From assembly GCA_051002235.1 (NCBI GenBank), contig JBPCMN010000042.1, forward strand, positions 2,903 to 66,902: 64,000 nucleotides of DNA, in the 5' to 3' direction. Source of the stretch: Acidimicrobiia bacterium. Lineage in GTDB: Bacteria; Actinomycetota; Acidimicrobiia; IMCC26256; JACDBD01. The position numbers and the translations under genes were made by a program. The first letter of the stretch is position 1; each line of letters starts with the position of its first letter. The notes under the pieces are model-generated. The model saw only the letters and a program-made list of their open reading frames with translations, did not search any database and was not told the DNA's origin. Below are positions 34,662 through 39,152 of this stretch, piece after piece.

Positions 34662-35552
34662 CTACGCCGGCCGGATGACGACCCGGCGGCGGGGCTCCTC
34701 GCCCTCGGAGCCAGTGGTGACCCCGTCCATCTCGGCGACGGCGTCGTGGGCGACCTTGCGATCGGAGGCCGACATCGGCTCGAGCGCCTGCTCCTGCCCG
34801 CTCTCGAGGACCTTCTGGGCGAGCTCCCGGGTGAACTCCGAGAGGGCCTGGCGGCGCTTGGCGCGGTAGCCACCCACGTCGACGTTGATCCGGGCGCCAT
34901 GCCCGCCGGTGTGGCGTTGGACGACCGTGCGGACGAGCTCCTCTATGGCACTCAGCGTGGCGCCCCGGGGCCCTACCAGCAGCCCGAGATTGTCGCCGGC
35001 CACGTCCACGAGGATGAACTCGTCGTCCTCGATCCGCGCCTCCACCTGGGCACTGGCCCCGAATGCCTCGAGCAGTCCCCTCGTGAAGCCCGCAGCCGTC
35101 TCGGCCTGCTCTTCGATCGGGATGTCCGACTCCTCCACCGTCGCTCCCTCGTCCGTGGCGACACCGGTCGCCCGCTCCTCCGCCGGTCGCCGTGGCCGGC
35201 GCCGACGCTGTCTCGACCCACTCGAACGGCGGCCGCCGCCACCTCCCGACGTAGCGGGGGCATCGCCCCCGTCCCCGTCACCGCGGCCCCGACCCCGGTC
35301 GCGTCCTCCGCCTCGCCCCGGGGCCTGCCGGGGACGACGCTCCCGCCGGCGCCGATCCCCGGGCTTCTCCCGCGAGATCGGCTTGACCCGGGCCCGGATC
35401 CGGGCCTCCCGGCCCCCGAGCCGGCCGAGCAGCCCGCTCTTGGGCTCGTCCACGACCTGGTACTCGAGGTCCTCCTCGGCTACCCCCAGCTCATCCAGCG
35501 CGGCTTCAACCGCTTCCTCGAGCGTCCGGCCCGTCGTCTCGACCCATTCCAT
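34662..35552 (-). CDS. jag: Jag/KhpB-type RNA-binding protein (Jag_N, KH, R3H)
   Basis: MEWVETTGRTLEEAVEAALDELG is Jag_N. Arg-rich linker, then C-terminal KH/R3H (LEPMSASDRKVAHDAV). Confidence 0.85.
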   Translation of the reverse strand: MEWVETTGRTLEEAVEAALDELGVAEEDLEYQVVDEPKSGLLGRLGGREARIRARVKPISREKPGDRRRRERRPRQAPGRGGGRDRGRGRGDGDGGDAPATSGGGGGRRSSGSRQRRRRPRRPAEERATGVATDEGATVEESDIPIEEQAETAAGFTRGLLEAFGASAQVEARIEDDEFILVDVAGDNLGLLVGPRGATLSAIEELVRTVVQRHTGGHGARINVDVGGYRAKRRQALSEFTRELAQKVLESGQEQALEPMSASDRKVAHDAVAEMDGVTTGSEGEEPRRRVVIRPA

Positions 35553-36653
35553 CTACCGCTTCCGCTTCTTGTTGCGCTTCCGCCGAGCCTGGTTGGAGCG
35601 GGTGCCCCCGCCCCCGCCCGACGGCCTCCCGGCCGAGGACGCCGGCGCCGGCTTCGCCTGCTTGGCGGCCGGGGCCGGGCGGGCGGGACCCGGCTCGCCG
35701 TTCGGTGCCGCGGGCAGACCGAAGAGCCCCCGCAATCGCCCGCCCCCTGAAGACGCGGGCGTTCGCGCCGGGGCAGGTGGTTCCGCCGCCGCCGGCTCTT
35801 CGGGTGTCACCACGGCGGGAGCCTCGGCCGCGGGCCTCGACTCCACGTCGATGGCCTGCGCCGGCGGCTTGGCCCCACCGCTCTTCTTCGCCGCCTGCTG
35901 CTCGCGGTGGGGCAGGTGGATCTTGCGGAAGATGACCTCCTGCTGGCCCAGGCGCCAGACGTTGCTGACCAGGAAGTACACGCACAAGCCGGCTGGGAAA
36001 TTCAGGGAGATGACGCCGAAGACGATGGGCAGCACCCTCCCGATCATCTGCATCTGGGCGTTGGCTCCGCCCTTGGGCGTCGTCCGTTGGGTCTGACGCG
36101 ACTGGAACAGGCCGGTCAGGACGATCAGGGCAACCAGCACGAAGTAGGGCGCGACGGTGAAGAACCCGCCCTCGGCGTTCAGCGGCGTGACCGAGAGGTC
36201 CATGCCGAGGAACTCGAGGTGCCGGGGGAAGCCGTCGGCGGCCCCACACTCCTTGACCGTCTCGTGCCGGCCACAGAGGTCTCGGAACAGGTCGGAGCTT
36301 TCGGGAATGTTCTTGTAGGTGCTGCGCAGCACGGAGAAGAGCGAGATGAAGACCGGGAACTGCGCCAGCAGCGGCAGGCAGCCCCCGAGCGGGTTGACCT
36401 TGTTCTCCTGGAACAGCTTCTGCTGCTCCTCGACCATCTTCTGTCGGTCGCCCTTGTGCTTGGCCTGGATCTTCTTGAGCTCGGGCTGGACCTCCTGCAT
36501 CGCCAGCATCGAGCGGGCCTGCTTGGCGGTGAGCGGGAACAGCAGCAGCATCACCGTGGCCGTGAGCAGGATGATCGCCACGCCCAGGTTCGGCACCACC
36601 CCGTAGAAGAACGCCAGCAGCCAACCGATCAGGTCGTACAGCGGGTCGAGCAT
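35553..36653 (-). CDS. yidC: membrane protein insertase YidC
   Basis: YidC/Oxa1 core (AIILLTATVMLLLFPLTAKQ...NPLGGCLPLLAQFPVFISLF) with a basic C-terminal tail. Confidence 0.9.
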   Translation of the reverse strand: MLDPLYDLIGWLLAFFYGVVPNLGVAIILLTATVMLLLFPLTAKQARSMLAMQEVQPELKKIQAKHKGDRQKMVEEQQKLFQENKVNPLGGCLPLLAQFPVFISLFSVLRSTYKNIPESSDLFRDLCGRHETVKECGAADGFPRHLEFLGMDLSVTPLNAEGGFFTVAPYFVLVALIVLTGLFQSRQTQRTTPKGGANAQMQMIGRVLPIVFGVISLNFPAGLCVYFLVSNVWRLGQQEVIFRKIHLPHREQQAAKKSGGAKPPAQAIDVESRPAAEAPAVVTPEEPAAAEPPAPARTPASSGGGRLRGLFGLPAAPNGEPGPARPAPAAKQAKPAPASSAGRPSGGGGGTRSNQARRKRNKKRKR

Positions 36654-36654
36654 C

Positions 36655-36924
36655 TCAGCCTGCTCCCAATCTCGAGGGCGGCGTCAGCGAACGTATGTTC
36701 GCCTCGGGAACGGGGTCGGGCCCGTACCCGCCCCACGGATGGCAGCGCCCGATCCGCCGCGCCGCCAGCCACGAGCCTCGCCGAGCGCCGTGGCGCTCCA
36801 GCGCTTCGAGGGCGTACTGCGAGCACGAGGGCTCGTACCGACAGCGCGGCGCGAGGTTCGCGCTCACCAGGCGCCAGCCCCGGATCGGGACCATCAGCAG
36901 GCGGGCCGGCCGCGTCGCCCTCAC
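36655..36924 (-). CDS. yidD: membrane protein insertion efficiency factor YidD
   Basis: [15 protein letters not shown]...[16 protein letters not shown] overlap with the rnpA stop. Confidence 0.9.
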
Positions 36925-37385
36925 GTGCCCTCCTCCCGAACCGACCGGATCAGGCCACCGACGGCGTCGCGCAGTGATGCGAACGACACCGTTGCCGCCT
37001 CCCGCCCCCCGCCGAAGAGATAGGCGCCGCCCACCAGCTCGTCCCGGTGGGCGGCCACCGCGGCCCGCAGCCGGCGCCGGACCCGGTTGCGGATCACGGC
37101 GTTCCCGCTCGAGTGGGCGGTCGCGACGGCGAGGCGGGGAGGCGAGGCCGGGTCGCCGGGAACGAAGCGCAGCGTGACGACGCCCCCGGAGCGGCGGCGC
37201 GCTCGGGCGAGGGCGTCGAAGGTTGCACGGTCGCGGACGGACCGGATCAGGCCGACAGCCGGGCGCGGCCCCGTCGGCGCCGGGACTTGATGACGGCCCG
37301 ACCGCCGCGCGTCCGCATGCGGGTGCGGAAACCGTGGGTCTTCTTGCGCTTGCGGTTGTTGGGTTGGAACGGGCGCTTCACGCAT
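36921..37385 (-). CDS. rnpA: ribonuclease P protein component (maximal ORF; conserved core 36921..37250)
   Basis: Core [14 protein letters not shown]...[17 protein letters not shown] (RNR motif). No ATG/GTG/TTG in frame between the core and ATG 37385, so the canonical ORF overlaps all of rpmH out of frame. The alternative start is CTG 37250. Confidence 0.7.
37247..37381 (-). CDS. rpmH: 50S ribosomal protein L34
   Basis: Not in ORF track (44 aa). GTG 37381 to TGA 37247 encodes [53 protein letters not shown] lies 6 nt upstream. Confidence 0.9.
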
Positions 37386-37450
37386 GGCCTCCTCGCGGCG
37401 CCGGTCCGTGGTGACCCGAGGTGGGGGTCTCAGCGGTTGCGGACCGGAAC

Positions 37451-37755
37451 GGTGGATTCTACGGGCGGTTCGCGGGCGCTCGCAACGCGCCTCCCGGTCG
37501 CCCGCCGCGCCCGGTTTCCCCCGCGGCTACCGACCGTTGGTTGTGGACGCCTCCACTCGGACGCGGTTTTCGGCACGAACGCGCCCCTTGTCGCCGTGTC
37601 CGCCCGGTGCTACGTTCCGCGTTCTCGCCCGACGCCTCGGCCTCGTTCGGGCGCACTTCCCCGAGAGCCCAGCTCGACCAGGCCGCGCCAGCCGGGCGGA
37701 GGGGGCAACCGGCCCGCTCCATGTTCTTCCACACCTGTGGATGTTCCTGTGGACA
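37451..37755. promoter_or_regulatory. dnaA upstream region with DnaA-box-like sites
   Basis: GGTGGATT (37451-58), TTGTGGAC (37541-48), CTGTGGATG (37735-43) and CTGTGGACA (37747-55). The last two overlap the candidate dnaA start codons. Confidence 0.5.
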
Positions 37756-39152
37756 GTCGAGACCTGGGCGCGACAGCGGCCGATGACATCTGGGAGCAGG
37801 CCGCCGCGGTCCTCCGCGACCGCCTCGAGGACGGCGCGTGGAACACCTACTTCCACGGGGTCCGCTCCTTCGGGTTCGACGGCGATCGGCTCACGCTGGG
37901 CGTCCCCAGCACCCTGGTGGCGGAACGCATGCGTACCGCCTACGTCCCGCTGGTCAGCGAGGTCCTCGCCGAGGTGGTCGGCCACAAGGTCGACGTCGAC
38001 CTCGTCGTCGACACGGCCGAGCGGGACGACGAGCTGATCCGGCCGCCGGAACCGGTGCGCGTGCCCGCCACCGACCCGGGAGCCACCGACGCCGACCGGG
38101 GCATCTGGGCCTCGGGCAAGCTGATCCCCCGCTACACGTTCGACCAGTTCGTGATCGGAGCCAACAACCGCTTCGCCCACGCCGCCGCCCTCACCGTCGC
38201 CGAGGCCCCCGGTCGCTCCTACAATCCGCTGTTCATCTACGGCGTTGCCGGCCTGGGCAAGACCCACCTCCTCCACGCCGTCGGCCATCACGTCAAAACC
38301 GTGTACCCGACCAAACGCCTCCGCTACGTCTCGACCGAGACGTTCATGAACGAGTTCATCGACGCCATTCGCTCGAAGACCATGCCCGTGTTCAAGCGTC
38401 GGTACCGCGACCTCGACATGCTCCTCATGGACGACATCCAGTTCCTCGAGCGCACCCAGGAGCTCCAAGAAGAGTTCTTCCACACCTTCAACCAGCTCCA
38501 CGGCGACGGCGGCCAGATCGTCATCTCCTCCGACCGGGCACCGAAGTCGATGGACACCCTCGAGGACCGGCTCCGCAGCCGGTTCGAATGGGGCCTCAGC
38601 ACCGACATTCAGCCCCCCGAATTCGAGACCCGCTTGGCGATCCTGCGCAAGAAGGCGGAAGCCGAGCACTTCGACGCGATTCGCGACGATGTACTCGCTT
38701 TCATCGCGACCAACATCACCGACAACGTCCGCGAGCTCGAAGGCGCCCTCATCCGGGTGGCGGCGTTCGCCAAGCTCAACCGCGCGAGCGCCCTCTCGGC
38801 CGAGGTCGCCCACCAGGTCCTCGCCGACCTGCTCCCCCCGAAGAAGCCCCGGGTGATCACCCCCGAGCTCATCCTCGACGAGACCGCTCGCATGTTCGGC
38901 TGGACGATCGAGGACCTCTGCGGCAAGAGCCGACGACGCCCCCTCGTGACCGCCCGCCAGATCGGGATGTACGTGTTCCGGGAGTTGACCGATTACAGCT
39001 ACCCCCGGATCGCCGAGCAGTTCGGCGGCCGCGACCACACGACCGTCATGTACGCCGTCGACAAGATCAAGAAACAGATGCCCGAACGCACCGCGATCTT
39101 CACCCAGGTCAACGATCTCATCACCCGGATCAAGCTCGGCACCAGTGGATAA
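37737..39152 (+). CDS. dnaA: chromosomal replication initiator protein DnaA
   Basis: ORF 37047.. trimmed to GTG 37737 (or GTG 37749). Domain I DIWEQAAAVLRDRL, Walker A GVAGLGKTHLLHA, sensor motifs, C-terminal DHTTVMYA HTH. Confidence 0.95.
   Translation: MDVPVDSRDLGATAADDIWEQAAAVLRDRLEDGAWNTYFHGVRSFGFDGDRLTLGVPSTLVAERMRTAYVPLVSEVLAEVVGHKVDVDLVVDTAERDDELIRPPEPVRVPATDPGATDADRGIWASGKLIPRYTFDQFVIGANNRFAHAAALTVAEAPGRSYNPLFIYGVAGLGKTHLLHAVGHHVKTVYPTKRLRYVSTETFMNEFIDAIRSKTMPVFKRRYRDLDMLLMDDIQFLERTQELQEEFFHTFNQLHGDGGQIVISSDRAPKSMDTLEDRLRSRFEWGLSTDIQPPEFETRLAILRKKAEAEHFDAIRDDVLAFIATNITDNVRELEGALIRVAAFAKLNRASALSAEVAHQVLADLLPPKKPRVITPELILDETARMFGWTIEDLCGKSRRRPLVTARQIGMYVFRELTDYSYPRIAEQFGGRDHTTVMYAVDKIKKQMPERTAIFTQVNDLITRIKLGTSG

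Follow-up and report, generated by a model that had tools for sequence, protein, structure and literature searches.

A probable Thermus-type nested start of rnpA, superimposed on a CTGA junction with rpmH, in an Acidimicrobiia bacterium

The closest described counterpart of the locus reported here is the rnpA-rpmH pair of Thermus. In T. thermophilus an AUGGAUG with one GGAGG serves both genes, and both are reported to have been shown experimentally to be efficiently expressed (PMC9841429, on Feltens et al. 2003, PNAS 100:5724). In 2022 this pair was described as the only bacterial case of two genes with one initiation site and different frames (PMC9841429). We describe a similar arrangement of rpmH, which encodes ribosomal protein L34, and rnpA, which encodes the RNase P protein, in an Acidimicrobiia bacterium of the phylum Actinomycetota. 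The locus lies on the minus strand of a stretch of 64,000 nucleotides (nt) from contig JBPCMN010000042.1, the whole of which is referred to as the window. An earlier, sequence-only reading of the window had pointed to the Thermus nesting, correctly in substance (PMC9841429), and knew of no such case in Actinomycetota. Our literature search agrees, as it found no description in that phylum, no paper linking rnpA with Acidimicrobiia and none on this overlap outside Thermus. The probable nested rpmH/rnpA start would be new for Actinomycetota.

A second point of reference is the coupling of adjacent genes through a stop codon. Mycobacterium tuberculosis has hundreds of gene pairs with an NUGA overlap, and the one tested works mainly by termination-reinitiation (PMC11260477, which cites Huber et al. 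2019, Nat Commun 10:4006). In mycobacteria CUG is rarely a start codon (PMC11260477), and we found in the literature no described conserved CUGA restart for an essential gene. Finally, L34 is about 130-fold more abundant than RnpA in Escherichia coli, and RnpA starts are typically weak (PMC9945441).

The explanation we favour, with a probability of about 0.55, is that a Thermus-type nested ATG start of rnpA is superimposed on an older stop-start restart at a CTGA junction. The anatomy of the locus and the comparison of 105 loci given below show that the ATG and the C of CTGA are both kept by selection and that some lineages are confined to the junction codon; actual use of the ATG by this organism, and how much either route contributes, we infer.

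The rpmH-rnpA locus in the window

The features of the locus are the following.

37456..37485, minus strand: candidate promoter TTGCGA-18 nt-TAGAAT, 5' of rpmH/rnpA (consensus match only; 1 site against 0.0 expected in 50 shuffles)
37388..37394, minus strand: Shine-Dalgarno (SD) sequence GAGGAGG, common to both starts, 2 nt from ATG 37385 and 6 nt from GTG 37381
37383..37385, minus strand: ATG, the sole canonical start of the rnpA frame, 4 nt 5' of the rpmH GTG and in the -1 frame
37247..37381, minus strand: rpmH (ribosomal protein L34, bL34), 44 amino acids (aa), GTG to TGA; PF00468
37251..37385, minus strand: N-terminal extension of the long RnpA, 45 codons (ends ...PAVG), encoded by the -1 frame of rpmH
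37247..37250, minus strand: CTGA junction, where CTG is codon 46 of the long open reading frame (ORF) and overlaps the rpmH TGA; candidate non-canonical restart codon
36921..37250, minus strand: RnpA core, 109 codons and stop, with the RNR motif RNRVRRRLR; PF00825, RnpA fold
36921..36924, minus strand: GTGA overlap of the rnpA stop and the yidD start (YidD, PF01809)

Between GTG 37381 and TGA 37247, rpmH matches PF00468 (Ribosomal_L34) at 3e-19 over profile positions 1-44 of 44. The rnpA frame, which is -1 relative to rpmH, is open for 154 aa from ATG 37385 to TGA 36921 and encloses the whole of rpmH (37381-37247). Its match to PF00825 (Ribonuclease_P, 4e-13) is confined to residues 49-147, corresponding to profile positions 6-106 of 109. 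The start region reads GAGGAGG (37394-37388), CC, ATG, C, GTG, with two starts 4 nt apart and one SD. Walked codon by codon, the rnpA frame has its upstream stop 148 nt 5' of the rpmH start. From that stop to GTG 37097, which is codon 97 of the long ORF and lies within the RNR motif, the sole ATG, GTG or TTG is ATG 37385. The only near-cognate codons are CTG 37250 and ATC 37247, which overlap the rpmH TGA as CTGA. All of this, namely the coordinates of both genes, the single SD, the two starts 4 nt apart and the sole canonical rnpA start, had been noted from the sequence and is borne out by our reading and by the profile matches. The absence of rpmH from the original ORF track, also noted then, is probably just a matter of its 44 aa, as the gene is listed once the minimum length is lowered to 30 aa.

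The open frame of rnpA across rpmH was set against chance by re-coding L34 synonymously 100,000 times with the codon usage of the window (71% GC, with T at 4.7% of third positions). The -1 frame stays free of stops in 69% of the re-codings (P = 0.69). Each rnpA codon of the overlap consists of the third base of one rpmH codon and the first two of the next. A stop in the -1 frame is rare at 71% GC because it needs a T-ending rpmH codon before AAN, AGN or GAN. Furthermore, no ATG, GTG or TTG is possible in this frame inside rpmH, because an NTG would require an rpmH codon that begins with TG, and neither Cys nor Trp occurs in L34; the earliest possible NTG of the rnpA frame is the one made by the rpmH TGA itself. 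We therefore rejected as evidence for nesting both the open frame, stop-free by chance in 69% of cases, and the missing internal start, since a gene that lacks Cys and Trp codons has no way to form an NTG in that frame. The sequence-only reading called the open frame weak evidence and the missing start codon the stronger argument; the former carries no weight, and the latter does not hold either, since the lack is automatic.

As for the protein, an AlphaFold model built on a 60-sequence alignment has a predicted local distance difference test score (pLDDT) of 40-58 over residues 1-45 and above 90 from residue 47. A fold search superposes the core on the RnpA of Bacillus subtilis, Staphylococcus aureus, Thermotoga maritima and E. 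coli, with template modelling (TM) scores of 0.7-0.8 normalised to the target. The targets measure 109-119 aa, of which these alignments span 100-107 columns, and the extension is thus without counterpart in solved RnpA structures. Searching the 154-aa ORF against PDB with phmmer gave no match at E <= 0.01. The extension, if made, is best seen as a tolerated disordered appendage.

Retention of the upstream ATG among relatives

Several hundred relatives were returned by protein searches in which the query was either the whole ORF or just the core; the named records among them are Acidimicrobiia or Actinomycetota metagenome-assembled genomes (MAGs). The closest relatives of the window (at least 70% identical, P0001-P0012) all begin at the nested Met. 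Loci were gathered with patterns from the RnpA core only, RNR[VAI]RRRLRA and [IT][WR][RP][VI]RDRA[TS]F, which are unbiased as to the extension. The yield was 41 species-representative genomes and 71 metagenome contigs, giving 105 loci, window included, after duplicates and incomplete loci had been removed.

In state A (41 of the 105 loci, including the window) an ATG stands exactly at -4 from the rpmH start, in the rnpA frame, and this frame is open to the core. Without exception, rpmH here starts with GTG and meets rnpA at GCC-TGA, which gives CTGA. In state B (48 loci) the junction is the same, with the rpmH TGA overlapping the first core codon, and there is no ATG at -4. State B includes 12 loci with no canonical start between the upstream stop and the core (e.g. 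L013, L021, L037) and three more (L040, L064, L077) that also lack a canonical start and whose rnpA frame meets a stop inside rpmH. Another 28 have only scattered far-upstream candidate starts at inconsistent positions. The remaining five have a canonical junction codon, GTGA in L041 and L112 and TTGA in L080, L105 and L108, and L080 also carries a stop inside rpmH in the rnpA frame. Finally, state D (16 loci) has a spacer or another frame, and ordinary starts. Two of these, L034 and L098, begin rnpA with ATG-GCC-TGG-CGC-ATC (MAWRIRDR), an N-terminus equivalent to the junction codon. In all of the 89 tight junctions, rnpA is in the -1 frame of rpmH.

The position of the ATG is sharply defined. 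A scan of offsets from -30 to -3 over the 105 loci found an ATG at -4 in 41 and in at most one locus at each of the 27 other offsets. The SD is fixed in all 41 ATG-bearing loci (positions -11 to -8 at 100%), and either C or G separates the ATG from the GTG. Upstream of the SD, the 5' untranslated region (UTR) of the same loci holds at most 0.6 bit per position from -28 to -15. In the clade of L002, L011, L047, L048, L052, L082 and L104 the triplet before the ATG varies (ATC, AGC, AGT, ACG) and the ATG is kept. Among ATG-bearing loci, 40-60% of the RnpA core residues differ and the synonymous sites of rpmH are saturated. A neutral triplet would not survive such divergence, so the ATG is under selection, and its long retention elsewhere in the class leads to the same conclusion.

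No stop precedes the core in any of the 41 ATG-bearing loci, whereas four of the 48 tight junctions without ATG have one (p = 0.12). Canonical junction codons, GTGA or TTGA, are found in 0 of 41 and 5 of 48, respectively (p = 0.059). The sequence-only reading had asked that relatives be compared on several of these points, and its expectations fared unevenly. The ATG-N-GTG arrangement is conserved, at -4, in 41 of 105 loci, but it is not universal and has been lost several times. Stops are absent from the rnpA frame of every ATG-bearing locus and present in L040, L064, L077 and L080, all of them without ATG at -4. Reduced synonymous variation of rpmH in the presence of the ATG appears in a few close pairs only (0.12 vs 0.24; 0.20 vs 0.34) and is identical at saturation. 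As for relatives with a normal junction start and stops in the upstream frame, which that reading would have counted against nesting, they do occur in sister lineages, though none of these has an ATG at -4.

A neighbour-joining (NJ) tree was built from L34 and RnpA (about 150 residues, noisy). Loci with the ATG are spread across much of this tree, and non-ATG lineages are both interspersed and basal. Fitch parsimony places the root without ATG and counts up to 14 state changes, an upper-leaning estimate on a noisy tree. The shared context GAGGAGGCCATG points to common descent of the ATG with repeated loss.

Some loci depart from these states in detail. In the metagenome contig L063 the start region reads GAGGAGGCCATGCGTTGAAG, where an extra T moves the ATG out of the rnpA frame and leaves a two-codon ORF, ATG-CGT-TGA, and rpmH starts with TTG. 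Its sister L045 has a normal ATGCGTG, and L063 has either lost its nested start naturally and recently or contains a sequencing error. In L060 an ATG is found at -7, still in the rnpA frame, in a clade otherwise without upstream ATG and with TTG as the rpmH start. In L105 a TTG at -4 occurs together with the TTGA junction. The highly expressed rpmH starts with TTG in L006, L013, L030, L053-L057, L059, L060, L071-L075 and L088. These loci form two groups on the NJ tree, a main clade and L071/L072 with L075, and the context in most is AGGAGGCTCTTCG-TTG.

The CTGA junction and the proposed routes of rnpA translation

Beside the nested ATG, the sequence-only reading had offered as an alternative a CTG at the rpmH stop. 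The comparative data support both as real mechanisms in the class and dismiss neither. A start at the junction alone, which we consider unlikely but well ahead of the other rivals, would mean that a 109-aa RnpA is made solely by reinitiation on CUGA without an SD of its own, and that the weak codon sets a low ratio of RnpA to L34. The ATG frame would then be untranslated or of no quantitative weight, and the ATG kept for another reason.

Much of what is known about the junction speaks for this. Fifteen relatives keep CTGA without a canonical rnpA start anywhere, three of them with the stop inside rpmH in the rnpA frame, and these lineages are limited to the junction codon. In seven other loci this codon is GTG, TTG or, equivalently, ATG: five relatives have GTG or TTG at the exact codon, and L034 and L098 have the equivalent N-terminus. 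It aligns with the N-terminus of the family (about position 3 of the Pfam profile) and with the first ordered residues of the model. The rpmH stop is TGA in 89 of 89 tight junctions vs 9 of 16 separated genes. The base before it is C in 41 of 41 loci of state A and 43 of 48 of state B, 84 of 89 overall, whereas internal Ala codons of the same rpmH genes are GCC in only 55-63% and nearby third positions vary freely. The C of CTGA is retained by selection, and not for a Leu, because Q, P, K or H is found at this position in lineages in which it is certain to be internal. In none of the 89 loci does an SD-like motif (GGAG, GAGG, AGGA, AAGG, GGGG) lie 4-18 nt 5' of the junction codon. A coupled restart would predict this, and before rpmH nearly all loci do have such a motif. 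Furthermore, a GTGA joins rnpA and yidD in the same operon, CTGA without a canonical start also occurs in a Trueperaceae locus, NUGA termination-reinitiation is known from M. tuberculosis (PMC11260477), and the roughly 130-fold rarity of RnpA relative to L34 in E. coli (PMC9945441) agrees with a weak start. A very weak restart codon would give a sensible RnpA:L34 ratio.

However, a junction start alone fails to explain why 41 deeply diverged loci have an ATG in the rnpA frame at the precise offset of -4 while the UTR around it decays. The same SD-ATG geometry is reported to be functional in Thermus (PMC9841429), for which reason an ATG of the type seen in the window can initiate. With no stop downstream, any initiation there would have to yield the long, 154-aa RnpA. 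The overlapping codon is also non-canonical, CTG in the window and in 84 of the 89 tight junctions, and GTG or TTG in five relatives, and CUG is rarely a start in mycobacteria (PMC11260477). Lastly, annotations that place the start at CTG are a fallback of the pipelines, and the rnpA call of T. aquaticus likewise begins at an internal CTG.

In the nested reading that we prefer, one leadered mRNA would carry rpmH-rnpA-yidD-yidC-jag. Its single SD would feed both GTG 37381, for L34, and ATG 37385, for the 154-aa RnpA in the -1 frame. Residues 1-45 of this protein would be an unstructured by-product of the out-of-frame reading of rpmH, and residues 46-154 the normal RNase P protein. The spacing from the SD, 2 nt to the ATG and 6 nt to the GTG, would keep RnpA far below L34. 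In the older route, ribosomes ending rpmH at UGA would restart on the overlapping CUG (CUGA) and give a 109-aa RnpA, and some relatives would still depend on this. For the window, a combination of both routes is the simplest account.

Several results weigh against the nested reading. The ATG was lost several times without a canonical replacement, and 15 loci have no canonical start at all. It follows that the ATG is dispensable and that the junction route alone can supply an essential protein; repeated loss without compensation also means that this route pre-exists and suffices. The C of CTGA is as strict in ATG-bearing loci (41 of 41) as anywhere, which is unexpected for a merely internal Leu. 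The extension follows the third positions of rpmH and shows no clear amino-acid constraint of its own, and synonymous divergence in rpmH reaches one and the same saturation level whether or not the ATG is present. Avoidance of stops, counted as T-ending codons before AAN, AGN or GAN, is marginal (0 of 216 in ATG-bearing loci against 8 of 378 elsewhere, p = 0.056), and such codons are depleted in separate-gene lineages as well (2 of 95). In addition, a spacing of 2 nt between SD and ATG is poor by E. coli standards.

The two routes may also operate together. We advance only tentatively, at less than even odds, the view that rnpA is expressed by both at once, with two isoforms (154 aa from AUG and 109 aa from CUG), and that many sister Acidimicrobiia, as well as at least one Trueperaceae, initiate rnpA solely at CUGA. 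An RnpA:L34 ratio of about 1:100 would be set by the weak codon, and nesting would be recurrent and almost forced, because an NUGA-coupled rnpA lies in the -1 frame of rpmH, which is usually open in GC-rich DNA and in which no NTG is possible. The slot for the ATG would be at -4 because it is there that an upstream AUG behind the SD first falls in frame.

That nothing special happens here, the long ORF being an open frame of GC-rich DNA that is headed by an ATG by chance and resembles Thermus by coincidence, is very improbable. It would account for the open frame (P = 0.69), for the automatic lack of an internal NTG and for an extension that is predicted to be disordered and is unconstrained. 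But pure coincidence is hard to hold when 41 of the 105 loci have their ATG at -4 and no other offset has more than one, and rnpA, essential and universal, must start somewhere and has no other canonical start.

Least credible of all is a slip of rpmH ribosomes to -1 at or before the UGA, giving a low-frequency L34-RnpA fusion: the -1 frame of rnpA in all 89 tight junctions, a minor frameshifted fusion at an AUGA overlap in mycobacterial reporters (PMC11260477) and one database protein, P0133, called as an L34(1-32)-RnpA fusion would fit it, but no slippery heptamer X-XXY-YYZ is present in rpmH or at the junction ...CTG TCG GCC TGA, a tRNA-Ala sitting on GCC finds no pairing in the -1 codon (GGC or CGC), P0133 is a single sequence whose frame switch at residue 32 is most simply a 1-nt assembly indel, and the lineages with GTGA, TTGA or a separate ATG show that a free RnpA N-terminus here is the norm. 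P0133 itself (ENA, 119,690-bp contig) is a 152-aa call that matches PF00468 and PF00825 and resembles the expected product of such a frameshift.

Gene callers disagree on this locus, and RnpA is mis-annotated across many genomes (as 154 aa, as 104-109 aa or as stumps of 72-85 aa). Prodigal-type calls give 151-158 aa and start with M[RG]EA exactly 50 residues before RDRATF. In GenBank records the protein has 104-109 aa, and its start is placed either on the junction codon itself or a few codons downstream, in the stretch from the adjacent Ile codon to the conserved RDR motif. Where the upstream Met is missing, calls are either extended far upstream (176-266 aa) or reduced to stumps of 81-85 aa. 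We rejected database annotation as evidence for a CTG start, since the rnpA call of T. aquaticus also begins at an internal CTG despite its published nested start; this GenBank-derived call (locus L114) covers 1317-1685 (122 aa) and begins inside rpmH, not at the nested ATG at 1197. One 151-aa RnpA with the Acidimicrobiia-type extension (P0082) is labelled in GenBank as 'Candidatus Nitrosopolaris sp.', an archaeon, and probably comes from a contaminating contig in a MAG.

Finally, the operon has the order rpmH-rnpA-yidD-yidC-jag. The promoter-like site upstream implies a leadered mRNA with a predicted 5' UTR of about 65 nt that would hold both starts. The genes are tightly packed on the minus strand, with GTGA at rnpA-yidD (36921-36924), TGAgATG at yidD-yidC (36651-36657) and TAGATG at yidC-jag (35550-35555). 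The first of these shows another putative use of 4-nt stop-start coupling in the same operon. In yidD a further in-frame ATG lies 10 codons downstream (LLMVPIRGW), and the Pfam match runs from residue 8. On the plus strand, a 217-aa ORF (37384-38037) takes its start from the ATG that the near-palindrome at the nested start provides (GCATGG on the plus strand); the region is not conserved among relatives, and the ORF is probably an artefact of GC-rich DNA. The dnaA ORF as listed (plus strand, 37047-39152, 701 aa from GTG 37047) extends back over rpmH and rnpA, which lie on the other strand. DnaA-like sequence begins only near ...DDIWEQAAAVLRDRL, and the true dnaA start probably lies several hundred bases further in.

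Comparison with Thermus and other systems

Natural variants of this locus in Acidimicrobiia, with the ATG present or lost, with CTGA, GTGA or TTGA junctions and with stops in the overlap, are suited to the study of how ribosomes are partitioned between close starts, and to asking how weak a restart codon can be. If the nested reading is true, a second and apparently independent origin in another phylum would make nesting a recurring way to obtain a rare and an abundant protein from one mRNA.

Two systems share part of the arrangement. The ambiguous starts AUGUG and GUGUG of E. coli (pqiA, tamA, narQ; PMC9841429) likewise place two overlapping frames with close starts behind one ribosome-binding region. 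There, however, the offset is 2 nt, bases are shared and the alternative ORFs are short, whereas the two starts of the window stand 4 nt apart and each opens a housekeeping gene with a conserved, essential product. As for the NUGA overlaps of M. tuberculosis (PMC11260477), the UGA of one gene shares bases with the first codon of the next in the same way, and this next gene has no SD of its own. GTGA recurs at rnpA-yidD, and GTGA or TTGA takes the place of CTGA at the rpmH-rnpA junction of five relatives. The difference is that N is C here, which leads to a non-canonical CUG.

The likeness to Thermus is closer. In the T. aquaticus locus, which was found via its L34 protein, the start region is GGGAGGG-AA-ATG-G-ATG, that is, GGGAGGGAA-ATG-G-ATG, and rnpA is in the -1 frame of rpmH. 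As in the window, rpmH lies wholly inside rnpA, the starts are 4 nt apart (AUG-N-NUG) and the single SD ends 2 nt before the AUG. The extension peptides of T. aquaticus and the window are also alike (...QDPRLPGPHEDPRR... among them), because both are the -1 reading of the conserved L34 gene. The two differ in the second start, which is ATG in T. aquaticus and GTG in the window, and in the end of rpmH. In T. aquaticus it is a TAG about 12 codons before the RnpA core, while in the window rpmH ends exactly at the core, in the conserved CTGA. With no NTG at its junction, T. aquaticus is bound to the nested start.

The distribution also differs. Among the sampled Deinococcota, the phylum of Thermus, nesting is found only in that genus, and none was seen in Meiothermus or three other loci; Meiothermus and two of the others have separate genes with stops in the -1 frame. 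The remaining one, on a Trueperaceae metagenome contig (L118, rpmH at 901-1044), has no ATG at -4, a -1 frame that is open into rnpA, a CGC-TGA junction (CTGA) and no canonical start, and its gene call is a 72-aa RnpA stump. As read from this contig, a CTGA junction without canonical start is a state that extends beyond Actinomycetota, and it may be a precursor of the Thermus nesting. By contrast with the single genus in Deinococcota, about 40% of the sampled species-level lineages of Acidimicrobiia, in the phylum Actinomycetota, have the nested ATG. The window probably represents Thermus-type nesting in a new phylum, with a far wider distribution and with a conserved CUGA restart site as its variant feature.

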